IMG/VR virus record: IMGVR_UViG_3300005077_000420
Location: 1-56,611 of that record
From: a virus
Taxonomy: Duplodnaviria; Caudoviricetes
DNA length: 56,611 nucleotides
Direction: 5' to 3' (one strand)
The translations under genes and the position numbers were made by a program. The notes beneath the pieces are model-generated. The model did not search any database, was not told the DNA's origin, and saw only the letters and a program-made list of their open reading frames with translations. The first letter of the stretch is position 1. Every line of letters starts with the position of its first letter. Below, one piece after another: positions 3,525 to 56,611 of this stretch.

Positions 3525-3863
3525 TTATATTTTATTTAAATAATTAAAATATAAAATAAATAATTTTTTATATAACCATTTTGGTTTTCGATAATAAAAA
3601 TTATTCCATTTTTTTAATTGAGAATGCGTATATGTTTGATGATAACCAACACAAAATTCAAATAATATTTTTCTTAATATCCATTTAATTTTAGTTTTTC
3701 CATATAATCTAAATATTATACACCAATTATTTTTTTTAGTAACAAATTCACATAATTTATTATTATAAATACACAGTCCGTTTAAATGATAATCATAATG
3801 ATTAGATATCCATTTAAAATTAACTTCATTATATGGAATTATATTAAGAAGTTCTTTTTGCAT
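3525..3863 (-). CDS. hypothetical protein
   Basis: 112 aa ORF, TAATG-coupled to the upstream gene. Confidence 0.65.
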   Translation of the reverse strand: MQKELLNIIPYNEVNFKWISNHYDYHLNGLCIYNNKLCEFVTKKNNWCIIFRLYGKTKIKWILRKILFEFCVGYHQTYTHSQLKKWNNFYYRKPKWLYKKLFILYFNYLNKI

Positions 3864-4669
3864 TATTTATAATTATCCTTTATTATATCCCATGTTTGTT
3901 TCATTAATTTTGTTCTTGTTTCTCCACGATCAGAAAATCCTGAAAATATCCATACATCAAAAAATCTAATAAAATGTGGTAATTTATATTTTTCATCTGA
4001 AAAATGTTGAGACATTTGCCAACTATTATTTAATACCTCATGTCGATATAAATGATTAACTCCATATTTAATAGGTAGAAAATTAACAGGAATATTATAT
4101 TTTGTAAGTAAATAGTTAATTACTGGTTGATCTCGACCTCGTTTTACAATAACATCTTCTCTTCTAATTATTTCATCTTTATTTTCATAATAAAAATTCT
4201 TAACTATATTCCAAAAATAATGATGTTGTTTAAAAAATAAAATAAAACCACTTGCAATATAATTATTTAAATTAAAATTTACATCAAGAAATAAATCTTG
4301 ATATCCTATAGAACTTTGATAAGTCCATTTTAAATTTTCATTTGCTTTTAATGCAGAAAATTTATCTTTATATAATTCAATTAAATCTGGAGCATCCCAT
4401 TTAATCATAATAGAAGCATCTGTTGATAAAACTGCATCATAATCCAATGGAATTATTTGATCTAAATATAACCATCGTTGCCAATTAATTTTTACTTTTA
4501 ATGTATCAGATTCAATTGGATTTTCAAATGGAATAAAAACATATCCATATTTATTGCAGTAATATTCCCATGTCAATCTGGAATAATTCATCCATTCAAA
4601 GTCTCCATAATTATATTTATTTGATGCTTCTTTATTTTTTATTCCTGTCCATAATAATATTTTCTTCAT
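3863..4669 (-). CDS. GT-A fold glycosyltransferase (GT8/GT34-like)
   Basis: WQRW, STDASIMIKWDAPD, SGFILF and GRDQPVINY motifs; resembles the C-terminal half of 8731-10062; probable start MKKILLW at 4669. Confidence 0.7.
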   Translation of the reverse strand: MKKILLWTGIKNKEASNKYNYGDFEWMNYSRLTWEYYCNKYGYVFIPFENPIESDTLKVKINWQRWLYLDQIIPLDYDAVLSTDASIMIKWDAPDLIELYKDKFSALKANENLKWTYQSSIGYQDLFLDVNFNLNNYIASGFILFFKQHHYFWNIVKNFYYENKDEIIRREDVIVKRGRDQPVINYLLTKYNIPVNFLPIKYGVNHLYRHEVLNNSWQMSQHFSDEKYKLPHFIRFFDVWIFSGFSDRGETRTKLMKQTWDIIKDNYK

Positions 4670-4679
4670 ATTTGGCTTT

Positions 4680-5228
4680 CTAATTATGTACTTCTTTAAA
4701 TTCAATTACTTCATATTTTCCATAACTTAAACGATACGTTCCTATACCTTCTTTTCCAGCTTCAACTAAAATATTTTTCATTGTTTCATTATTTATATGT
4801 TCATCTGCATTTGAAATTATATGAAATTCAAATTCCCAATTTTTCCATATAGGTCTTGCTATTGGACTTCTACATTTTGTATTCGGATTAACAATAGTAT
4901 CTATATTTATTTCATAATTTTCTGGATTCTTTGGTTGTAAAAAATATATAAATTCTTCTTCAACAATAATACTTTGAGCGCATAAATTTTTATATGTTTT
5001 TTTCCCTTGCCATTTAATTTGAGTTGCACCTTTTATAATTGATCTTTCAACATGATTTGATGGTTGAATAATAATACCATTATTATCCAAATATAAACAT
5101 TTTTTTACATCCTTCACTGGATCAAAAATAGTTGATTTTTTTGTTTTTCCAATAGAAATTTCTTCAATTGGAAATCTTTTATGCATTAATGGTCTTATTC
5201 CCTGTATTCTAACATAATATCGTTTCAT
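4680..5228 (-). CDS. stand-alone Cas7/RAMP-like RNA-binding protein (182 aa)
   Basis: RAMP-type order of motifs: YYVRIQGIRPL (beta1), IIIQPSNHVERSI (IPgSslkG-like), thumb hairpin IDTIVNPNTKCRSPIARP, WEFEFHI, C-terminal G-rich loop AGKEGIGTYRLSYGKYEV; start MKRYY at 5228 with GAGG RBS at 5234-5237. Confidence 0.72.
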   Translation of the reverse strand: MKRYYVRIQGIRPLMHKRFPIEEISIGKTKKSTIFDPVKDVKKCLYLDNNGIIIQPSNHVERSIIKGATQIKWQGKKTYKNLCAQSIIVEEEFIYFLQPKNPENYEINIDTIVNPNTKCRSPIARPIWKNWEFEFHIISNADEHINNETMKNILVEAGKEGIGTYRLSYGKYEVIEFKEVHN

Positions 5229-5244
5229 ATTAACCTCATTAAAA

Positions 5245-5279
5245 ACACTACAACACACTACATGACAACACGCCACGTC
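5245..5279 (-). repeat. 5-nt-period repeat tract (NN-YGT)x7, candidate small guide RNA
   Basis: minus strand reads GA-CGT-GG-CGT-GT-TGT-CA-TGT-AG-TGT-GT-TGT-AG-TGT followed by TTTT; 17 of 35 bases are G/C, against a very AT-rich background; intergenic, directly 5' of the RAMP-like gene. Confidence 0.8.
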
Positions 5280-5288
5280 ATTATAAAA

Positions 5289-6152
5289 TTATTTTCTATT
5301 TCGTATAAAACCAAAAAATCTTTTTGTATCATTTTCTTTTTTAATTTCTGATTGTTTTTTTATTTCTTTTAATCTATCTTCAGTTAATGTTTCTAATTCT
5401 CTCATTTCATCAATAATATCAGAAGGTATATCATACATTTTAGGATATCCATATAAAACTTTTTGACTTTCATCATATTCAATAATAAATGCTCCTATAT
5501 CTGGAGTTTCATTAAATACTTTTCTTTCCATATAATCTGTAGAATATTGAAATGCTGGAGTTATATATGCTTGAATTCCAGATTTTTGAATTCCATAAAA
5601 AATATGACCATGTGATCTAACAATCATTGTAGGACATTTTGTTTTTGTTTTTACTGCATCTTTTTGAACATTATCCATTTCTTTTTTCAACGATGATAAT
5701 GTAAATCCTGCCGCATGTTTAAATTGTATTTTTTCATTTTCAATTAATAATTCATATATATTTCTATGATATGTTCCACCCAATTTTTCAATTACTTGTC
5801 TATCTAAATTTGCTCCTGCTCTACTACTATTATGATATCCACTACCTGCAATACCATGTACTTTAGTATTATTTCCAATAATAGGTTTTAATAATTCAAT
5901 TGCAAAATTTATTTGTTCATCAGTATCAGTTGTTATTGCTTCAACTCCAGCTTGTAAACTTTGATTTCCATCACATATATCACCATTTAAAATTAAATAA
6001 TCTGGAAATTTATAAGTTTTAATAATATCTTCATATATATTTAATACCCATTTTTGAAATGGATTTGAATAATAATAATTTTCTATTGTCCTTTTTGGAT
6101 TTAAACCTCTTATATGACCACAATGCATATCCGATAGTGTTAATATTCGCAA
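5289..6152 (-). CDS. calcineurin-like metallophosphoesterase
   Basis: SDMHCG, NGDICDG, GSGYH and SHGH motifs; TTG start. Confidence 0.85.
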   Translation of the reverse strand: MRILTLSDMHCGHIRGLNPKRTIENYYYSNPFQKWVLNIYEDIIKTYKFPDYLILNGDICDGNQSLQAGVEAITTDTDEQINFAIELLKPIIGNNTKVHGIAGSGYHNSSRAGANLDRQVIEKLGGTYHRNIYELLIENEKIQFKHAAGFTLSSLKKEMDNVQKDAVKTKTKCPTMIVRSHGHIFYGIQKSGIQAYITPAFQYSTDYMERKVFNETPDIGAFIIEYDESQKVLYGYPKMYDIPSDIIDEMRELETLTEDRLKEIKKQSEIKKENDTKRFFGFIRNRK

Positions 6153-6162
6153 TTCAGTTCTC

Positions 6163-6648
6163 CTAAATAATTAATAGTTTATTTTTTAAAAAATTAAATA
6201 ATTTTGTATTTGATTTATCAATATATTTATTAATATCAATAATAGTATTATTTAATTCCCATTTTTTAAAATCAGTTTTATCAAAACAATCTTTACATAT
6301 TGTTAAAATCCATCCTTTGGTTTTACCTATATTATTAATTGTTCCACAAAATTCACATATAGATAATGATATAATTCTTGCAAATTCTACTAAATTATAT
6401 ATATATTCATCTTCATCTCCACCATCATAATAAACTGAAAGGAATCCAAATTTTTCTTTAATTTGTGTTATTTTAACTTGAATAATATTATGTGTATCTA
6501 TATAAGACTGAATATCATAACATAAACAATCTAATAATTCATACCAACCATTACGATGTGAAAATTCATATACAGATATATTTTGATTATCATCAATAAA
6601 TAATTTTGGATATTTATTTATTATTTGTTGTTCTAATTCATAATCCAT
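6163..6648 (-). CDS. conserved phage hypothetical protein with C-terminal Zn ribbon
   Basis: GWYELL, QIKEKFG, CEFCG and GWILTICKDC; probable start MDYELE at 6648. Confidence 0.7.
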   Translation of the reverse strand: MDYELEQQIINKYPKLFIDDNQNISVYEFSHRNGWYELLDCLCYDIQSYIDTHNIIQVKITQIKEKFGFLSVYYDGGDEDEYIYNLVEFARIISLSICEFCGTINNIGKTKGWILTICKDCFDKTDFKKWELNNTIIDINKYIDKSNTKLFNFLKNKLLII

Positions 6649-6652
6649 TATA

Positions 6653-7054
6653 TTAATCTTTCTGAACAAAGATTTTATAAGTAACTGTTTGAATAAAATA
6701 CCATGCACATGACATCATTAATATTGATAAAAATATTCCAAATATACTATTATATGATTTTAAAGAAATATATAATAAAATTATAAATACATTAATATTT
6801 TTAAAAAAATGTTGACCATCCCAAAATATAGGATGTAATAAAAATTTTATTGTTAAATGTTTAAATGTTAATATATAATAACGATACTCGTTACTATCAT
6901 ATGATTGTAACCATGTATATAATTTAAAATATTTATTTTTTAATCGTTGAAATATACTATTAGAAAACCAACGATCAAATTCAATTATTTCTCTTAATCT
7001 ATCAAAAAATGCAAGTAAAGAAATAAAAATAAGAAATTCAATTATTATATCCAT
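6653..7054 (-). CDS. membrane protein, hypothetical
   Basis: several hydrophobic segments, GGAG RBS. Confidence 0.7.
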   Translation of the reverse strand: MDIIIEFLIFISLLAFFDRLREIIEFDRWFSNSIFQRLKNKYFKLYTWLQSYDSNEYRYYILTFKHLTIKFLLHPIFWDGQHFFKNINVFIILLYISLKSYNSIFGIFLSILMMSCAWYFIQTVTYKIFVQKD

Positions 7055-7082: not shown

Positions 7083-7547
7083 TTACTTATTATCATTTTT
7101 ATTAAATTCATAATTCTTAGCCATATATGACATTCTACGATTATTAACTATTAAAAATAATACAGGCATTATTATAAATGATAATATTAATGCAATATAT
7201 AAGAAATACTTTAACAAAATAATAGATATTATTGTTCCAATCGTATCTGATATTAAATCTTTAAATGAAAATCCTTGTATATTTCCATCAGAATCATATG
7301 GTTTTGTGCCATCTTTTATTTCCCAAACAAATCCAATAAATACTGATATAATAAATGTTGAATATAATGCAAAATTAATTACTGACAATTTAGATGTATC
7401 TAAAAATAAATTTATAAATCCAAGATTTAAAAACCATATTATAGTTGTACCAACAATTGATAATAATAAATGTTCAAGTTTATCATATTTAAAAATACTC
7501 CCCTGTGTACTTAACCATTTATCTATATTCCATTTTAAAAATTTCAT
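7083..7547 (-). CDS. VanZ/YfiM-like membrane protein
   Basis: DKLEH, WEIKD and FSFKDLISDTIG motifs with 3-4 TM segments. Confidence 0.6.
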   Translation of the reverse strand: MKFLKWNIDKWLSTQGSIFKYDKLEHLLLSIVGTTIIWFLNLGFINLFLDTSKLSVINFALYSTFIISVFIGFVWEIKDGTKPYDSDGNIQGFSFKDLISDTIGTIISIILLKYFLYIALILSFIIMPVLFLIVNNRRMSYMAKNYEFNKNDNK

Positions 7548-8432: not shown

Positions 8433-8731
8433 TTTATTTTTTTACTTATATGTCGATCTATATAATATTTAGCCATATCTATTATTTGTTTTTTACCAGA
8501 ATATTCTTCCGATTCTTCTTTTTCAGTTATAAAATAAGAATCATAAAATTTCATATACCATTTGGGTACAGTTGATTTTCGATAACCAGTCATTGTTTTA
8601 TAAATTAAAAATTTTATATTTTTATATTCATATACATAAGCAGGATATACTGAATTAAATAAAGTTTTTTTAATAAGTTTTAAATTATCTGAATTTTCTG
8701 ATAATAATTTAATATTTTTTAATAATATCAT
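8429..8731 (-). CDS. hypothetical protein
   Basis: 100 aa ORF, TAATG-coupled, GGAG RBS. Confidence 0.65.
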   Translation of the reverse strand: MILLKNIKLLSENSDNLKLIKKTLFNSVYPAYVYEYKNIKFLIYKTMTGYRKSTVPKWYMKFYDSYFITEKEESEEYSGKKQIIDMAKYYIDRHISKKIK

Positions 8732-10062
8732 TATTTTTCTCCATAAAAATATTCATAAGTTTTTTTCATCCAATATAATGTTTGTTCATTATTTTTATTA
8801 TTAGGTATAGCATTATATTGATAAATATAGCCAAATTTAGTAAATAATAAATCATCAGTCAGTATTTCTTTTCTATTCATATCTATCATATTATATTCAT
8901 ATGGTAATTGAGTTAATGGAATATTATTAAGATGTATCATAAAATTTACAGGAGTTTGATCTGTTCCAACATGAAAACTTTCTAATTGCTTAAATTCATC
9001 TATTCTATTATTATATAAATCTAATATACTTTTATATAATATTTCATGAAAATTATTACAAATCATAAATCCAGCATCAAAATATTTATAAAAATCAAAC
9101 ATATAATCACTAAATATATATTTTGAATATATATCCATACTTCTTAACACCCAATCCCAACTTCCACCAAATTCAGCTACAGTAAAATTATGTTGACTCA
9201 ATTCAAAAAAACGAGGAGTATCAGGATGAACAATAGTATCTGCATCTACCATTAAAATTTGATTATATTTTATATTATTTTGTTTTAATAAATCAAATAA
9301 ATAATATCGTTGCCAACAAATTCCCATATCGGATATAGGTAACAATAAATCTTCAAGAACAAACATATCTATATTTTTATGTTTTTTAACCCATTTTTCC
9401 CAACTTGAAATAGAATATTCATATGGTAAACTTCGTGATTCTGACCATCTACCATCACCATTAAGTTTTATATTCATCATAAAAACAATATCATTTTTAT
9501 TATTTTTTGGTTGTATTATAATACCTTCTTTATCAACAAAAACAGTACCTTTTTGAGAAATTAATGTATTAGCATCTTCACCTATAAATTTTAAAATTTG
9601 TATTTCATCTTTAAATTCTTGTATAACTTGATTTACACCAACATTTGGATGACCATAATCATCAAAAATAATTATTGAATTATTATACATATTAATAATT
9701 CGTTGTAAATCATATTTGACTTCTTGATATGAATGACCAGCATCAATCCAAATAACCTGAAAATCAATATCAAAATTTAAATCTTCTTGATATATATTTT
9801 TTTCAATAAAAATTATATTATTTCTATCTTTATGAAGTTCTTTTGCTATACTAACATCTCTATCAATTGCAACTACAGTTTTAAATAAATAACTTAAAAT
9901 TCTACTTGAATATCCTTTATTACATCCAAGTTCTAAAACATTACAATTTCTATATTTTTCATCAGAAAAAAATTCTAATATATCTTTTTTAAATTTTTTA
10001 CTTGTAGTATTTTTATCAGTATCTTTATGTGGCACTTCAGATAATATTTTATCAATATTCAT
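8731..10062 (-). CDS. class I SAM methyltransferase / GT-A glycosyltransferase fusion
   Basis: N-half VLELGCNKG, IDAGHSY and IFDDY; C-half WQRY, MVDADTIVHPD, AGFMI and GTDQTPVN. Confidence 0.8.
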   Translation of the reverse strand: MNIDKILSEVPHKDTDKNTTSKKFKKDILEFFSDEKYRNCNVLELGCNKGYSSRILSYLFKTVVAIDRDVSIAKELHKDRNNIIFIEKNIYQEDLNFDIDFQVIWIDAGHSYQEVKYDLQRIINMYNNSIIIFDDYGHPNVGVNQVIQEFKDEIQILKFIGEDANTLISQKGTVFVDKEGIIIQPKNNKNDIVFMMNIKLNGDGRWSESRSLPYEYSISSWEKWVKKHKNIDMFVLEDLLLPISDMGICWQRYYLFDLLKQNNIKYNQILMVDADTIVHPDTPRFFELSQHNFTVAEFGGSWDWVLRSMDIYSKYIFSDYMFDFYKYFDAGFMICNNFHEILYKSILDLYNNRIDEFKQLESFHVGTDQTPVNFMIHLNNIPLTQLPYEYNMIDMNRKEILTDDLLFTKFGYIYQYNAIPNNKNNEQTLYWMKKTYEYFYGEK

Positions 10063-10065
10063 AAT

Positions 10066-10806
10066 TTATTCCTTTAATTCATCAGGAAAACTTGTTATTT
10101 CATTTTCTAATGATTTTATTATTTCTCTGTTTTTTTCTTTTATTAACCATTTAAAATTATTTAAATTATCATAACCAGTATCAGTCCATGAATACGGATG
10201 ACATAATAAATGAATTTTTTCTCCATTAACATCATTAGCATATTTCCATCTATGATTAGAATCAGATAAATACGTTATTTTCATAACACCAGTATTTTCA
10301 AAATCATGATCTATAAATTTTTCATCATATTGATTAATTATATTATTATCAATATGAAATGGTTTAACAATCCATTCATAACGTGGACGATGATATACAA
10401 ATCTATCTATTTTATAATCTAAATAATAAGATAAAATACTTATTTCTTTTAAAATATGAACTTTCATTTGATGTTCAGTATTACCATATAAAAAATCTTT
10501 TTTCATATATGTATGAACACCAATTTTATGTCCCATAGATATAATATCTTTAATTAATTGTAAATTTTTAATTGATAAAGAATTATAATTATTATTAGAT
10601 AATTGAATATTATATGTAGATTTAACTCCTATTTTATTTTCTATCATTGCTAATTTATGCGCTCTATCTATACTAAATTCTACATCATGTCGAATTATAC
10701 ACCAAGTATTATACATATCAACATCAGAAAAATCTATAATAGGTATATTTTTTAATCTTATTTTTTTAATTAAATTTCTATAATAATCATATGAAAATTC
10801 ATTCAT
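10066..10806 (-). CDS. polysaccharide deacetylase-like protein
   Basis: IRHDVE, IGVH, HRP and LCHP motifs of the NodB/WbmS-like barrel. Confidence 0.7.
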   Translation of the reverse strand: MNEFSYDYYRNLIKKIRLKNIPIIDFSDVDMYNTWCIIRHDVEFSIDRAHKLAMIENKIGVKSTYNIQLSNNNYNSLSIKNLQLIKDIISMGHKIGVHTYMKKDFLYGNTEHQMKVHILKEISILSYYLDYKIDRFVYHRPRYEWIVKPFHIDNNIINQYDEKFIDHDFENTGVMKITYLSDSNHRWKYANDVNGEKIHLLCHPYSWTDTGYDNLNNFKWLIKEKNREIIKSLENEITSFPDELKE

Positions 10807-10820
10807 TATCTTTATCCTCC

Positions 10821-11273
10821 TTAATATGATATTAAATATTCTATCATATTTCTCGTATTTTGATGTAAATTCATTTTATCCTTATTTTCAGAATACCATT
10901 TTTTTACACCATTAAAATTACTTACTATTCTCGATTTTCCATTTTTTATTATATCCATTGCTAACCAATCACAAACCATTTCATATATATATATTTGATC
11001 CATATGTTTAGGTTTATCATCAACAATCCAGTATTGCCAATGATGTTTATTTCTTTTATAATGAAGATCAACTGCAACATTAAATTTATTTTTAATATCT
11101 TTAGTTTTTTTATCACCATAAAAATAATTTGCATATGGAAAAAATTCAGATGGTAAAAATTTACTAAAATCATGTATAATTCCTCTATAAAATAAACCAA
11201 ATTTAAAACATTCTAACATTACATACCATTTATGTTTCACTATATATTTAAAATATTTTATATATTTATTCAT
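10821..11273 (-). CDS. HD-like phosphohydrolase (DUF5662-like)
   Basis: HKWYV, HDFSKF, NKHHWQYW and EMVCDW. Confidence 0.7.
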   Translation of the reverse strand: MNKYIKYFKYIVKHKWYVMLECFKFGLFYRGIIHDFSKFLPSEFFPYANYFYGDKKTKDIKNKFNVAVDLHYKRNKHHWQYWIVDDKPKHMDQIYIYEMVCDWLAMDIIKNGKSRIVSNFNGVKKWYSENKDKMNLHQNTRNMIEYLISY

Positions 11274-11980
11274 TCAATTTTTCCTTTATAATAATCTCTA
11301 ACTTTTCGATATCCCATTTCTTTTCCATGATATAACCAACAAAATCCATTTAAATAAAATATAACTCCTTGTTTATGTAATGTAATAAAATAACCTTCTT
11401 GACCTCCCCAAATTCCATCTCCACCATCATACTCATGTTTTAATGGAAACATTTCATTATCAGCAAATCTATATTTTTCATAAAAATTTCGTGTAAATGC
11501 AAAGAAAAATCCACTCGGTATTTCATTATCAGGAAATTTATAAATTTTATAATTTGGCTTAGATTGCTTTTGAATACCACTTAACAATCCTTCACTTAAT
11601 GGAAAATATATACTATTATTACTTTCATTATGTGTTTTTATAAAATTTAAAAATGGATTAATAGTAGTATTAAAAATTATATCATCACTGGTCATACAAA
11701 TAATATCACAATTATCATTAAATGCCATATCAATTCCAATATTCCATCCTCCAGTAATTCCTTTTTCAGATTGATCTTTAATATAATGATATAAAATTTT
11801 ATTATTCCATTTTTTATAATCATATTGTATTTCAGAACCATTATCTACAATATAAATATAAAAATTTTGAGTATTATCTAATTCTGAGTATAAAGAAGAT
11901 ATACATTTATCTGCTAATAATAATCCATTATTTCTAAATTTTTCAGAATAATGAACTAATATTACAAATCCAATTTTCAT
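11270..11980 (-). CDS. GT2-family glycosyltransferase
   Basis: IVDNGS, GWNIG, TSDDI, GFFFAF and GQE. Confidence 0.8.
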   Translation of the reverse strand: MKIGFVILVHYSEKFRNNGLLLADKCISSLYSELDNTQNFYIYIVDNGSEIQYDYKKWNNKILYHYIKDQSEKGITGGWNIGIDMAFNDNCDIICMTSDDIIFNTTINPFLNFIKTHNESNNSIYFPLSEGLLSGIQKQSKPNYKIYKFPDNEIPSGFFFAFTRNFYEKYRFADNEMFPLKHEYDGGDGIWGGQEGYFITLHKQGVIFYLNGFCWLYHGKEMGYRKVRDYYKGKIE

Positions 11981-11993
11981 TAAAGTCCTCCCA

Positions 11994-12971
11994 TTATAAA
12001 TTTAATGATTTATTATTATTATTTATAATTTCAAATCTATTTTTAACTGATTTATAAGAATATATATTATTAACTGCAATCCATGCATTATTAATTACAT
12101 TATATCTTTTTTCATAATCATTAATATATTCATAAAAAAAATGTTCTAATATATCAAAATCATTAGTATATGTATCTGGAAATAATATTTTATGAGAATC
12201 ATTTAATCCTCCAATATTTATAATACCAAGTGCGGCACATTGCATTGCTTGTTGTCCTGGAAAATGTAAATTTGGGTCTAAATTAAAATGAAATGTACAT
12301 GGAGTCCATAAATCTAAAAAATTTTTCCATTTATTTTGTATTTGATTATCTGTATGCATTCTTATATATGGAATATTATATTTTTTACTTATATATTCTG
12401 TAAATTTTAATGTTTCTCCTAATCTTGAAGAATTATGTACTGGAAAATATGAAAATATTTTTTCTTGCTTATTTTCCATAAAATAATGATCATATAAATA
12501 ATCTATATCTACTGGTTGAGGCAGAAAATATATATTTTTATTACAAGTAGATATTCCAGTTAATAAATTATAATTAAATATTGGAGATAATACATCATCC
12601 ACTTCATTACATACTTCAATTCTTTTATTCCAATTAGTATTCCAATTCCATAATTCTTTTATTACATAAAATATTTTAGCATTTGGATATTTTTTTCTCA
12701 ATTTAAAAATTGTCATTGTATCAAATTTGTTTTCTATACTAACAAATATAACATCTAAATCTAAATCTGGAAGTTCATTTTCCCATTCACTCCAATTTAA
12801 AAAACATCCATTAAAAACAAATGGATATCCCCAAAAACCAATAAATGATTTATTTCCTAATGAATGATGAAATTTATATGGTTCATTTTCATTTTTAAAT
12901 TTATATGCTTTATTATTTTTAACAATATATGATTCAACTTTACATTTATCAACTATTAACGCAAAATTCAT
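11994..12971 (-). CDS. putative GT-B glycosyltransferase
   Basis: LPQPVD and GQQAMQCAALG (GT4-like C-terminal lobe); cluster context. Confidence 0.55.
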   Translation of the reverse strand: MNFALIVDKCKVESYIVKNNKAYKFKNENEPYKFHHSLGNKSFIGFWGYPFVFNGCFLNWSEWENELPDLDLDVIFVSIENKFDTMTIFKLRKKYPNAKIFYVIKELWNWNTNWNKRIEVCNEVDDVLSPIFNYNLLTGISTCNKNIYFLPQPVDIDYLYDHYFMENKQEKIFSYFPVHNSSRLGETLKFTEYISKKYNIPYIRMHTDNQIQNKWKNFLDLWTPCTFHFNLDPNLHFPGQQAMQCAALGIINIGGLNDSHKILFPDTYTNDFDILEHFFYEYINDYEKRYNVINNAWIAVNNIYSYKSVKNRFEIINNNNKSLNL

Positions 12972-13669
12972 TTTTTCCCCAACACTGAATTTAATTTATC
13001 AAGATTCATAGATATATTACAAGAATCAATATATTCTTTATTTTTATGAATTGGAATAATATCTTGACGAGAAGATTTTGCTAAATCATATACTGTTTTT
13101 AATTTTGTTCCAACATTAAATAAACCAGTACAATCTTTATTTATTAATTCAATCATTATATTTGCAATAACATCTACATAATCAAAATTTCCAATTAAAT
13201 CAATCCATGCCGCATTATATTCAAATGGATATTTTTTATATGATGCTCTTAATATAAGATAATTATTACTTCTCGCCATAATATATGCATCAGCTAATAT
13301 TTTAGTATAAACATACCAATTATTATAATGTACTGGAATATCTTCTTCATTTGCCATATTAACTGAATTGGCATAAACATAATCTGTACTAATATGAATT
13401 AATTTTTTTTCAAAAAAATTACATAAATCTACTAAATCCATAACTGATTTATAATTCGTATTCCAGTGCATTTCTTTATTAATATTATCTTTTGTTTTTG
13501 TATAGGCAATACAATTTATAATTTCAGTAACATCATTATTTGAAATATATTTTAAATAACTATCTATATCATTAAAATCAATTCCATCTTTTTTTCTACT
13601 TATATAATTCCATCCAGTTATAGAATGTATAGTAGAAGATAAAATTCCATCACCAAGCATTAATATCAT
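12968..13669 (-). CDS. RmlD-like NDP-4-keto-sugar reductase
   Basis: GDGILS, INCIAYT, HISTDYV and YVYTK (YxxxK). Confidence 0.8.
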   Translation of the reverse strand: MILMLGDGILSSTIHSITGWNYISRKKDGIDFNDIDSYLKYISNNDVTEIINCIAYTKTKDNINKEMHWNTNYKSVMDLVDLCNFFEKKLIHISTDYVYANSVNMANEEDIPVHYNNWYVYTKILADAYIMARSNNYLILRASYKKYPFEYNAAWIDLIGNFDYVDVIANIMIELINKDCTGLFNVGTKLKTVYDLAKSSRQDIIPIHKNKEYIDSCNISMNLDKLNSVLGKK

Positions 13670-13675
13670 AATATT

Positions 13676-14974
13676 TTATTCCTTAAAATTTTCAACAATT
13701 AATTTTATATATTTCAGTGTTTGTTCAGTATAATGTGGAGAACAACCAACAAAAAATACTTTATCTAATACTTCATTTGCCATTGGATATTTAGAAAAAT
13801 CATCATAATTTTTATATGCAGGATGTAAAAGAATATTTCCTGCAAAATAATTCCTTGTTTGTATATTATTTTGTTCCAAATGTTCTACTAATTTTGTTTT
13901 TAATTCTTTAGTTTTACATAAAATTGGAACACCAAACCAACATACATCAGAAAATGAATGCTTTTCTACTTTTTTAATACCATTTATTTTTAAAAAATAT
14001 TTTTCAATATGAGATTTATTATATATTCTATTTTGTTTTATTTTTCCAAATTTATCTAATTGTACAAGTCCCATTGCTCCTTGAATATCTAATGGTTTTA
14101 AATTATATCCTATGTTTGTAAATACATATTTATGATCAACAATTCCATTATATAATGGTTTAAGCCAATCACTGAATCTTTTTTTACAAGTTCCCTGTGG
14201 TAATAAATTTGATGAACCAACACAATAACAATCTCTACCCCAAGATATCATGCTTCTTGCTATATCTATAATTTCTTTAATATCAGAAGAAATCATTCCA
14301 CCTTCTCCCGTTGATATTTGATGAGCAGAATAAAAAGAACATGATGAAGTTATACAATATTCATTTAAATATTTATTAAACCATTTAGTTCCAAGACTAT
14401 CACAATTATCTAATATTAATTTTAAATTATATGTTTTACTGATATTAATTAATTCATCTATATTTGGAGGATTCCCTAAAACTGGACTTATAAAAATTGC
14501 TTTAGTATTACTATTTATATTTTGTTTTAATTTATGTAAATCAAAATTTAATGTTTGTAATTCTATATCAACAAATGAAGGTTTTAAATTATTTAATAAT
14601 ATTGCAGATAATGTAGTTGGAAAACCAACCACTGAAATTATAATTTCAGAATTATCATCCCAATTAAAATATTTTTTTAATGCCGCAAGCATTATTAAAT
14701 TTGCAGAACTTCCAGAATTAACCATTACTGAATATTTAGAATTAAATTTTTTAGAAAATTCATTTTCAAATTTATGTACTTTTTCACCACTGGAAAACCA
14801 TTTACCAAAAATTAATGTTTCAATAATAGCTTCAATTTCATTTTCATCAAAAAAAGGACCTGAATATAATACTTTATTTTCAAATTCCTTATTATTATAT
14901 GCAAATTTTGGAACAATGCCATATTCAGATATTATATCATTTATAAATTTACTTATTATATTTTTTTTATCCAT
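13676..14974 (-). CDS. rfbH: RfbH/DdhC-like CDP-4-keto-6-deoxyglucose 3-dehydrase (DegT family)
   Basis: NSGSSANL; SFYSAHQISTGEGG with His at the PLP-Lys position; WGRDCYC...C Fe-S segment; DHKYVF; FAGNI. Confidence 0.8.
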   Translation of the reverse strand: MDKKNIISKFINDIISEYGIVPKFAYNNKEFENKVLYSGPFFDENEIEAIIETLIFGKWFSSGEKVHKFENEFSKKFNSKYSVMVNSGSSANLIMLAALKKYFNWDDNSEIIISVVGFPTTLSAILLNNLKPSFVDIELQTLNFDLHKLKQNINSNTKAIFISPVLGNPPNIDELINISKTYNLKLILDNCDSLGTKWFNKYLNEYCITSSCSFYSAHQISTGEGGMISSDIKEIIDIARSMISWGRDCYCVGSSNLLPQGTCKKRFSDWLKPLYNGIVDHKYVFTNIGYNLKPLDIQGAMGLVQLDKFGKIKQNRIYNKSHIEKYFLKINGIKKVEKHSFSDVCWFGVPILCKTKELKTKLVEHLEQNNIQTRNYFAGNILLHPAYKNYDDFSKYPMANEVLDKVFFVGCSPHYTEQTLKYIKLIVENFKE

Positions 14975-14976
14975 AT

Positions 14977-15753
14977 TTAAATTCCTTGTTTTATATCTCT
15001 AATTAAAAATAATGGATTTCTCCAATGAAACAAATAATCATATACATGAAATGGAGCTCCAGTTTCATTACTTAAACTTCCGAAAGTAATATATGGATAT
15101 TTTTGTAAAACCAATTCTTTTGTTTTATCAAATGCAATACAATCATCCCATCGATCATTAGAAAATATTTTTCCATCTAAATAATAATCAATATATTCAA
15201 CTATAAAAGTTTTTGCATTTTTTTGTAAATTAAAAACAATTGTATCAGTTTCAGTATAAAGTCCATGTGAACTTCTATCAATATGACATATATCATATTT
15301 TTTTACATAATCAATAAAAATTTCATCCAATGATTTATTAAATTTAGTATCACATCCAACCCAAATTAAAAATGGAGTTTTACATATATTTTTACAATTA
15401 TTAATTGCTACTACTTTTCTAAACCAAAAAATAGAATTTCGTATCCAATAATAAGGAGGATCAAATGTTGATGGAGTTCCATATTTATGAACATCTTTAA
15501 ATGGTGATTTTTTTAAAAAATCAGATAACCAATTATTTTCTTCAAATAAATCAAATATATGTAAATTATCCCATTTTTCTTTAATTACTAATTGTTCATT
15601 ATATTTTTCTTGTTCAAATAAATTTTCATGATATACATAAAAATCCATATTTGGATAAAAATTCATCATGCTTTTTACTATTTCTTGATGTTCATCTTCA
15701 TATAATCTTTTATTAAAAGTTGTACCTACACTAAATAATTTTTCTATTTTCAT
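14977..15753 (-). CDS. putative nucleotide-diphospho-sugar transferase
   Basis: FRKVVAI, LIWVGCDT, ETDTIVF and WDDCIAFD resemble phage GT-A proteins. Confidence 0.5.
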   Translation of the reverse strand: MKIEKLFSVGTTFNKRLYEDEHQEIVKSMMNFYPNMDFYVYHENLFEQEKYNEQLVIKEKWDNLHIFDLFEENNWLSDFLKKSPFKDVHKYGTPSTFDPPYYWIRNSIFWFRKVVAINNCKNICKTPFLIWVGCDTKFNKSLDEIFIDYVKKYDICHIDRSSHGLYTETDTIVFNLQKNAKTFIVEYIDYYLDGKIFSNDRWDDCIAFDKTKELVLQKYPYITFGSLSNETGAPFHVYDYLFHWRNPLFLIRDIKQGI

Positions 15754-55342: not shown

Positions 55343-56611
55343 TTATATTTTTCTTGTATTTTTAGCAATAAATTCTGCTAATTTAGCACCATTTATATTC
55401 ATATCAACTCCAGATTCAAATAATGCAATTAATCTTTGTAATAATTCATATATATCATCTATATTTTTATTAGAAATAGATTTATCAACATATTGCTTAT
55501 CATATTGAATAGTTTCATCTTTTTTCGTATTAATAGTTGAAAATCCATTATTATTTTCATCTGTTATAGTGGGAACATTAGACATTTGTGGATTTAATAT
55601 TGTATTAATAGATGAAGCCACATTAGATAATGGAGTAGATAATTTTGCAATATCATTTAATTGAGTAACTATTGTTTTTCCAGGAAGTAATGATGAAACA
55701 AAAGTTTCAATTTGACTTCCAGCAGAAGATACTGAAAATAATGTTACTGCTCCAGCTAATGTTGTTATTGCAACCGCAGTTTTCATTAAATCAGTAGACA
55801 TTAATGCTAATTTTTCAAAATTATTAACAAGACCAGAAAATCCATCAAATATACCTTTCATTACTGATGTTATTACATTACCAATACCTTTAATAATATT
55901 AACAATACCATTAAATATATTATTTATACTATTTGAAATTGAATTAAATATTTTAGATATTATATCTCCAATTCCAAATAAAACATTAAATATTATATTA
56001 CCAAATTCATTCATTAATGGAATAAATGATGTAATTGATTTTCCAAGAATATATATTGCACCTGCCAAAATTAACATTCCAACTGAACCAGCTATAAATA
56101 ATGGAGAAATTGAACCAAACAATGTTGCTATCATTGCAAATCCAGATATAATTGACATTGAAATTAATACATTTTTCCAATTAATATCAGAAGAAAATTG
56201 TTGCATAGCTTTACCTAATATATATAATGATCCTGCTAAAATCGTCATTCCAATTGAACCTAATATAATTTGAGCAGACATTGACGATAATAAATTAGAA
56301 ATTAAAACTAAAGACATCAATGAACCAATTCCAAAAGCAAAACTTGAAAAATCCACGTTTAAAAACTCTTGCATAGCTTTACTTAATACATATAATGATC
56401 CTGCTAAAATTGTTATTCCAATTGAACTTAATATAATTTGAGCAGACATTGACGATAATAAATTAGAAATTAAAACTAAAGACATCAATGAACCAATTCC
56501 AAAGGCAAAACCTGAAAAATCCACATTTGAAAACTCTTGCATAGCTTTACTTAACACATACAATGATCCTGCTAAAATCGTCATTCCAATTGAACCTAAT
56601 ATAATCTGAAC
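55343..56611 (-). CDS. tail tape measure protein, C-terminal part (5'-truncated by the window)
   Basis: frame stays open to the window edge (VQIILGSIG precedes the listed M); amphipathic Ala/Gly/Ser/Ile-rich repeats; upstream of baseplate genes. Confidence 0.75.
   Translation of the reverse strand, partial: VQIILGSIGMTILAGSLYVLSKAMQEFSNVDFSGFAFGIGSLMSLVLISNLLSSMSAQIILSSIGITILAGSLYVLSKAMQEFLNVDFSSFAFGIGSLMSLVLISNLLSSMSAQIILGSIGMTILAGSLYILGKAMQQFSSDINWKNVLISMSIISGFAMIATLFGSISPLFIAGSVGMLILAGAIYILGKSITSFIPLMNEFGNIIFNVLFGIGDIISKIFNSISNSINNIFNGIVNIIKGIGNVITSVMKGIFDGFSGLVNNFEKLALMSTDLMKTAVAITTLAGAVTLFSVSSAGSQIETFVSSLLPGKTIVTQLNDIAKLSTPLSNVASSINTILNPQMSNVPTITDENNNGFSTINTKKDETIQYDKQYVDKSISNKNIDDIYELLQRLIALFESGVDMNINGAKLAEFIAKNTRKI
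56200..56611. repeat. 168-bp (56-aa) near-identical tandem repeat within the tape measure gene
   Basis: GCTAAAAT anchor recurs at 56235, 56403 and 56571; about 2.4 units are visible. Confidence 0.92.

Follow-up and report, generated by a model that had tools for sequence, protein, structure and literature searches.

Background

VIPR is a very recent find, a form of RNA-guided DNA recognition thought to be older than CRISPR. It is built around Vipr, a phage-encoded minimal RAMP protein of about 20 kDa, and a guide RNA, the vrRNA, which consists of 9-16 YNNGG repeats with a conserved GGY and a hypervariable NN, followed by a constant tail; the NN pairs are described as reading double-stranded DNA on either strand, with one target base skipped per unit and no protospacer-adjacent motif, and the function as silencing of rival phages and satellites (10.64898/2026.04.26.720920). 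Here we analyze a 56,611-nt stretch of DNA from an uncultured phage of the Caudoviricetes (IMG/VR record IMGVR_UViG_3300005077_000420; hereafter the window), in which a tract of seven pentanucleotide units lies between a gene for a metallophosphoesterase and a gene for a Vipr homolog. Homology to the Vipr protein of Escherichia phage SUSP1, the predicted fold, and the repeat arrays of related loci make it most likely that this locus belongs to the VIPR family, and we consider the tract to be probably the vrRNA guide region of a three-part locus composed of a vap gene (the metallophosphoesterase), a vrRNA, and vipr.

Seven VIPR types with associated vap genes have been described, those of types III-V coding for predicted nucleases or helicases; systems with a single vrRNA occur, as do the alternative repeats NNNGG, YNNNG and NNNNG, and no self-targeting is reported for guides searched against their own source contigs (10.64898/2026.04.26.720920). 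In the structure, there is one protomer per repeat, and the Vipr protomers hold the trinucleotide: G1 is contacted by H17 and D177, G2 by R138 and W178, and Y3 lies in a pocket that includes R179, with the thumb residue R138 holding G2 and W178 stacking on it (10.64898/2026.04.26.720927). The tail of the SUSP1 vrRNA is a pseudoknot (10.64898/2026.04.26.720920, 10.64898/2026.04.26.720927). A separate language-model study lists 21 clusters with non-canonical 5-mers, such as WGT/NN and TGH/NN, beside Vipr-like folds (10.64898/2026.10.21.760802).

The repeat tract upstream of vipr

The candidate guide region occupies positions 5245-5279 on the minus strand (all coordinates are those of the window, and its features are on the minus strand unless another locus is named) and is made of seven in-phase units, each with a variable dinucleotide followed by YGT, which from 5279 to 5245 read GA-CGT, GG-CGT, GT-TGT, CA-TGT, AG-TGT, GT-TGT and AG-TGT. 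A sequence-only reading had already placed a seven-unit tract at these positions, with G and T fixed and a pyrimidine always preceding the G, and this description holds in all seven units (C in two, T in five); its count of 17 G/C bases out of 35 in an AT-rich genome is likewise correct, the window having a G+C content of 21.8%. There is no in-phase G on either side of the seven units. In the notation of the VIPR paper, its letters would class the repeat as YNNNG-type, a relaxed YNNNG or WGT-like form and not GGY.

The tract is housed in a 60-nt spacer between the metallophosphoesterase open reading frame (ORF) and the vipr ORF. Read along the minus strand, TAA (5291-5289), which ends the former, is followed by TTT, TATAAT (5285-5280), the seven units, TTTT (5244-5241), AAT, GAGG (5237-5234), 5 nt and the vipr ATG (5228-5226), so that the tract ends 17 nt upstream of the ATG and 7 nt upstream of GAGG. 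The T run lies directly 3′ of the last TGT, would read UGUUUUU in RNA, and marks where the tract ends, perhaps as the beginning of a tail or as a terminator; GGTTT(T) also closes several canonical arrays of related loci, e.g. L002, L003, L008 and L010. The vap stop codon, the entire tract and the vipr ORF share one reading frame (5226-5291), which is probably a coincidence.

Within the window, the four-unit YGT pattern YGTNNYGTNNYGTNNYGT is unique to the tract, where it yields four overlapping matches as compared with 0.01 expected from shuffles, and none of 100 shuffles reached four. When both strands of the window were searched for chains of at least five units with G followed by C or T at 5-nt spacing, only the seven-unit tract was recovered; the longest such chain in 200 mononucleotide shuffles had five units and was seen in nine of them. 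Neither the chain finder nor the repeat finders revealed a second array in the 56.6-kb window. The tract is absent from the rows listed by Tandem Repeats Finder at a score of at least 30, as might be expected for a unit in which only three of the five positions are fixed.

The Vipr homolog

The vipr ORF (4680-5228) encodes a 182-aa minimal RAMP protein and is preceded by GAGG at 5237-5234. A profile of 36 family members, headed by the window protein, matches PDB chain 36pp_D, annotated as SUSP1 Vipr protein, with E = 8.4e-25, the alignment spanning profile positions 1-173 of 178 and chain residues 1-189 of 202; the same chain is matched by the 182-aa protein as a single sequence with E = 1e-4. 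In PHROGs, the only match is to phrog_4652, of unknown function (E = 1.2e-11). Database homologs share 40-56% identity with the protein, the closest (P0002, 56%) being encoded on a 1,778-nt contig; no close relatives were found by a single-sequence IMG/VR scan or by tblastn against 50,697 phage records, and a genome collection gave one match only, a 3.4-kb contig of a metagenome-assembled genome (MAG).

The AlphaFold2 model of the protein has a pLDDT (per-residue confidence) of 93.1 and a pTM (overall confidence) of 0.87, and with it Foldseek retrieved 120 PDB matches at E ≤ 0.001. The top matches are chains of about 195-220 residues from type III-A Csm, type VII and type III-B Cmr complexes (E from 2.2e-8 to 7e-6); their length suggests that these are Cas7-family backbone subunits, as does the VIPR paper, in which 6IFN chain E stands for Cas7. 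As modeled, then, the 182-aa protein has a Cas7-like, minimal RAMP fold, of the kind defined by an RRM core, a glycine-rich loop and a thumb.

Related loci carry 5-nt arrays beside vipr

Related loci were collected from IMG/VR by an alignment scan with the 182-aa protein (35 loci, 26-38% identity) and from metagenomes (16 loci, 32-50%), and are numbered L001-L051. Arrays of at least five units with a 5-nt period, in which either GG or GT is constant on the strand of vipr, are present in 30 of the 35 IMG/VR loci, often flanking the gene on both sides and reaching up to 23 units. Distant relatives have NNGGT or NNGGC (NN-GGY) arrays immediately beside vipr, while 15 of the 16 metagenome loci carry NN-NGT arrays, mostly NN-AGT, as does one MAG contig. 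The NN positions in these arrays take all four bases. At low-GC loci, arrays are found strictly on the vipr strand; for GGC-type arrays there is no strand test, because the repeat finder also fires on their reverse complement. The clade closest to the window (L036-L050 and L405) has mostly AGT/TGT-NN units, i.e. WGT/NN.

Three loci of this clade (L044:3579-3880, L049:3565-4040 and L046:3613-4260) have successive guides separated by constant units followed by AGCAG(AGCAG), with a phase shift of 3, and these constant units look like a built-in boundary or processing signal. At L032:380-900, and also at L011 and L014, vipr is followed downstream by about 500 nt of GGC/GGT-NN arrays, and the ORFs beyond these are presumably GemA-like and Mor-like, as in the early region of a Mu-like phage.

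Repeat type and the G-loop

The G-loop of the window protein is GIGTYRLSYGKY, with glycines G158, G161 and G170, and its thumb arginine, R125, is invariant across the 36 family sequences. Alignment with SUSP1 Vipr equates R125 with R138, Y165 with W178, and R166 with R179, so that the residues holding G2 and Y3 are kept, while the aspartate that reads G1, D177, is replaced by a threonine, T164. The tract shows the matching pattern: its G and the T after it never vary, and the first G is lost.

The same correspondence runs through the family. Where the loop has Thr (16 sequences, the window and L036-L050), between 0 and 25% of the units of any one sequence have G as the first base of the trinucleotide; where it has Asp plus an aromatic residue (26 array-bearing loci), the share per locus is 51-100%. 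The Asp-to-Thr change in the G-loop thus appears, from these aligned loops and arrays, to go with the loss of the first repeat G. L015 (Asp-Lys) has the aspartate without a conserved G. The histidine matching H17 of SUSP1 is offset by one residue in the Thr clade, and is also missing in some canonical loci.

L007 has a canonical G-loop, GIGDYRP, and carries period-5 GGA-NN arrays (3593-3868 and 1989-2028), a purine replacing the pyrimidine; these GGA-type units were missed by the array finder. NGT-type units are found at L015 (loop GIGDKRP) and at L027 (GIGAWRP).

A metallophosphoesterase as a syntenic partner of vipr

The candidate vap gene (5289-6152), whose stop codon lies 3 nt before TATAAT, encodes a 287-aa calcineurin-like metallophosphoesterase, a predicted nuclease. 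It scores just below the threshold for Pfam Metallophos, a domain matched by all 13 family members, and D8, H10, G57-D58, Y106-H107, H146, H181 and H183 are invariant in 13 metallophosphoesterase sequences. Among proteins of solved structure, the closest in sequence are archaeal DNA polymerase II small subunits (E = 4.2e-8), the phosphoesterase domain of which is an exonuclease. A word-indexed protein search with the 287-aa sequence returned nothing but the sequence itself.

By tblastn, a metallophosphoesterase adjoins vipr in 14 of the 51 related loci, namely in 11 of 16 closest-clade loci (the other five are contigs of 1-2 kb) and in L001, L024 and L034; it is a syntenic partner of vipr. L043 has the same order as the window: vap, array, vipr. 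The homologs at L001, L024 and L034 are distant (25-28% identity) and stand beside vipr genes with canonical GGY arrays, so that the nuclease-like partner is not restricted to the Thr-loop clade. The recurrence of this partner suggests target cleavage. The words “phosphoesterase” and “metallophos” do not occur in the text of 10.64898/2026.04.26.720920, supplements aside.

Comparison with known systems

The closest described system is the type II VIPR of SUSP1, with Vipr (PDB 36pp), vrRNA and vap1. Both loci are phage-borne and have a homologous RAMP protein of about 20 kDa, 5-nt repeats, each with three fixed and two variable bases, adjoining vipr on its own strand, a single accessory gene, and no CRISPR array, and the residues that hold G2 and Y3 are common to both. 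They differ in the trinucleotide (YGU in the window, GGY in SUSP1), in the residue at the G1-reading position (Thr instead of D177), and in the number of units (seven as opposed to 9-16). The window has a single array located between vap and vipr, in contrast to one upstream and three downstream in SUSP1; no pseudoknot tail was recognized in the window, and its accessory protein is a metallophosphoesterase instead of a predicted DNA-binding protein. Another parallel is provided by the non-canonical arrays described in the preprints (YNNNG, NNNGG, NNNNG; WGT/NN, TGH/NN), where nothing but the second G and the pyrimidine after it is fixed. Unlike the WGT/NN arrays, however, the tract has C or T, never A, at the first position, and is shorter than the ten repeats stated for them. 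What is unusual here, in other words, is the number of units, the pyrimidine at the first trinucleotide position, and the threonine in place of the G1-reading aspartate.

With the backbone of class 1 CRISPR complexes (Csm3, Cmr4 and type VII Cas7 on CRISPR RNA), the locus shares the fold, together with two features that the preprints ascribe to VIPR: one protomer per guide repeat, and a thumb that periodically interrupts pairing. In VIPR, however, the period is 5 nt with two paired bases, as opposed to 6 nt with five paired bases in CRISPR, and the guide itself is the repeat, with no spacer-repeat array and no cas genes nearby. The locus is therefore not a CRISPR-Cas member; the fold alone is shared. 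Cas families were absent from the scanned neighbors in Pfam, PHROGs and PADLOC, and no long-period repeat-spacer array was present near the locus among the rows listed by Tandem Repeats Finder.

Another point of comparison is TRAP, the trp RNA-binding attenuation protein, which binds (G/U)AG triplets separated by 2-3 nt. It too is an oligomer reading a fixed triplet at a spacing of about 5 nt in leader RNA, and is a model for a cis-acting operator, although its fold is unrelated and it has no guide function. The idea of a TRAP-like or other oligomer lattice was dropped once the homology to Vipr was found.

VIPR systems and non-canonical repeats are already known from the 2026 preprints, and the locus does not open a new category; the supplements of these preprints may already cover the Thr-for-Asp correspondence and the nuclease-like partner. 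It does add a member from an extremely AT-rich, uncultured phage. A natural seven-unit guide bears on the question of minimal guide length, and the pairing of an Asp-to-Thr change with a lost G1 hints at what determines the specificity for the repeat and at a way to re-engineer it. The repeat code was recognizable from the raw sequence alone.

Proposed mode of action

What can be proposed for transcription, processing, Vipr binding, the one-nucleotide skip in this repeat class, target and nuclease action is drawn by analogy from the characterized SUSP1 system. The tract would be transcribed, probably together with vap and vipr, and Vipr protomers would assemble along the RNA, one per 5-nt unit. 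Each pair of protomers would clamp the fixed YGU and expose two variable bases, and the seven NN pairs (GA GG GU CA AG GU AG) would read double-stranded DNA in the pattern NNxNNx..., one target base being skipped per unit. Binding would lead to silencing of the site or, since the partner is nuclease-like, to its cleavage; rival mobile elements are the likely targets. The sequence-only reading had proposed that the fixed triplets serve as a scaffold while the 14 variable nucleotides specify a gapped target such as GAnGGnGTnCAnAGnGTnAG or its complement, a proposal which agrees with the published VIPR rule. Its support comes through family membership, i.e. homology, fold and the arrays of relatives, and not from a test on the tract.

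Weighing the guide interpretation

Several observations weigh against this interpretation. Seven units fall below the 9-16 of canonical vrRNAs, and non-canonical motifs are said to be repeated 10 times (10.64898/2026.10.21.760802). In the closest clade, chains have a median of 12 units, and the 23 of 86 chains that have seven units or fewer represent, for the most part, pieces of degenerate arrays. A predominates at the first trinucleotide position in that clade (94 of 97 units in L049) and is found there in none of the seven units of the window, and the arrays of the clade are closed by constant units (AA, AA, AG or TT, with AGCAG after them), which the tract of the window lacks. Nor was a conserved or stable 3′ tail recognized after the tract, where the fold is at chance level, and Rfam at gathering thresholds gave zero matches across the whole window. 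The correspondence between loop and repeat may amount to one evolutionary event, because the Thr loop defines a single clade. According to the text of the preprints, the experiments behind the one-nucleotide-skip rule concern canonical GGY systems only (10.64898/2026.04.26.720920,.720927). One DNA sequencing run contains 0.10 of the sampled window words, and no RNA run is listed.

The target searches add to these points. The window contains no match to GAnGGnGTnCAnAGnGTnAG with up to three mismatches, as compared with 0.5 expected. In IMG/VR, exact matches to the one-nucleotide-skip pattern numbered 93, as opposed to at least 120 and 119 for two dinucleotide permutations, and the matches of low G+C content (below 0.32; seven, as compared with 0 and 6 in the controls) represent four unrelated ORF groups of near-duplicate contigs, without convergence on a single gene. 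The search for the dinucleotide string with controls that the sequence-only reading had suggested, run on the window and IMG/VR, thus ended with no target above chance, 14 bases being too few: they cannot identify a target in a collection of that size. Codon phase 0 accounts for 44 of 94 matches, a figure with no control comparison, and such an excess is expected because the pattern reads as GAN-GGN-GTN codons.

We also applied the one-nucleotide-skip pattern to two guides of the closest clade, from L049 and L046, using 8-unit seeds followed by extension. The L049 seed had six matches, and their extension was at chance (6-11 of 26-34 nt). The L046 seed had 15, and in seven near-identical IMG/VR contigs the first 10 units of the guide (3774-3825) were matched exactly (20 of 20 nt); the other 12 units matched no better than chance, and the base that is skipped is codon position 1 and not the wobble position. 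A rough post hoc estimate for the L046 match is p ~0.03. The seven contigs are L384, L385, L387, L391, L393, L395 and L397, and the match is located in the 5′ part of an ORF of 670-850 aa, which bears an N-terminal ...TAGTGHTHDG... motif.

An alternative that we regard as unlikely, yet deserving of serious consideration, is that the tract binds Vipr without having any target in trans, either as a decayed or truncated vrRNA or as a cis operator, in which case a filament of Vipr on the vap-vipr leader would control vipr translation or transcript processing. The tract has about half the usual length, no target rises above chance, and it is placed inside the operon, directly 5′ of the vipr ribosome-binding site; the arrays of L001 and L034 reach into the start codon of vipr, and the Shine-Dalgarno sequence of L037 is made up of the last units. 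However, every family-invariant residue is retained in both proteins, which speaks for a functional system in need of a guide, single-vrRNA systems are published, and a search with 14 nt lacks the power to demonstrate the absence of a target. The detection threshold used by the VIPR authors is four units (10.64898/2026.04.26.720920), so that a count of seven lowers our confidence that the locus is typical and leaves its membership in the family standing. Other arrays could lie outside the window, because the contig breaks off at 56611 within an ORF, and this bears on neither reading.

That the tract has nothing to do with Vipr and is a GT-rich regulatory or structural element of DNA or RNA, for instance a promoter-proximal element, a weak terminator between the two genes or a slippage product, seems to us improbable. 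A putative promoter-like site, TTTATA (5309-5304) and TATAAT (5280-5285) with an 18-nt spacer, scores 10 out of 12 and ends at 5280, just before the first unit, and one terminator-like hairpin with G-U pairs lies at 5278-5260, with 0.2 expected. Against this, the RNA fold of 5215-5300 is not better than that of shuffled sequences (z = -0.55), promoter-like sites in 4600-6300 are at chance level (17, as compared with 16.0 ± 3.7 in shuffles), the tract is the sole chain of its kind in 56.6 kb, and the 5-nt phase, the fixed G/T, the strand and the position next to vipr recur in dozens of distant loci. The sequence-only reading was correct in noting that TATAAT precedes the tract, which together with the U run it held to be compatible with a small discrete RNA, although it called the -35 poor. 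The hexamer occurs 194 times on the minus strand of the window and, since the motif is at chance frequency, the idea of a discrete RNA starting there carries little weight; a start about 7 nt past the box would, moreover, presumably remove the first unit or units of the tract. A known RNA family or stable RNA structure was rejected, the fold being at chance and Rfam empty, and a G-quadruplex was dropped, as the tract has no GG runs and the homology to Vipr had been found; a search of the window for tRNA genes found none. Least credible of all is translation of the tract, be it as extra N-terminal residues of Vipr starting at GTG 5276 (MACCHVVCCSVFNEVN-) or as a short ORF from ATG 5282 to TAG. 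The GTG 5276 frame is open into vipr and is also that of the vap TAA, but four of six database homologs begin at a Met aligned with ATG 5228, which is M17 of the GTG 5276 ORF (the other two have unrelated longer N-termini), so that the tract does not appear to be an N-terminal extension; GAGG stands 5 nt before ATG 5228, with no such site before GTG 5276, and the match to the SUSP1 Vipr profile begins at residue 1 of the short form. Translation of the tract, which the sequence-only reading had named as evidence that would speak against it, is therefore not what these starts favor.

We thus retain the interpretation of the tract as a vrRNA guide region, which would be either a minimal single guide or a shortened one; it is possible that it also acts in cis as a Vipr-binding leader, a role that could coexist with that of a guide. 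A more elaborate scenario, which as a whole we find doubtful, is that a Thr-loop lineage no longer reading the first G has joined with an Mre11/DP1-like metallophosphoesterase in a VIPR that cuts instead of silencing, and that its single seven-unit guide doubles as a vipr operator titrated by Vipr. The same scenario would place this system in an apparently lytic phage of about 22% G+C with a T4-like replication module, and would make its 14-nt guide shorter than any described, a combination that is, taken jointly, equally doubtful.

Genomic surroundings

Leaving aside those nested in a longer minus-strand ORF, all 65 ORFs of at least 90 aa lie on the minus strand. A 280-aa ORF (3863-4705, minus strand) starts 13 nt past the vipr stop and has no match in Pfam, PHROGs or PADLOC; it is probably outside the system, because it is beside vipr in none of the 51 related loci. 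As candidate partners, this ORF and those at 3525-3863, 6163-6708, 6653-7054 and 7083-7547 were set aside, having no tblastn match in L001-L051. PADLOC returned no defence model for the four proteins scanned. Elsewhere, the window encodes a family-B DNA polymerase (phrog_262, E = 3e-180), a ribonucleotide reductase, a MazG-like protein and sugar-modifying enzymes. Among the products of the minus-strand gene run at 8731-15753 are a protein with a methyltransferase domain and an aminotransferase of the DegT/DnrJ/EryC1 type (E = 9e-65), which suggests a sugar-modification module.

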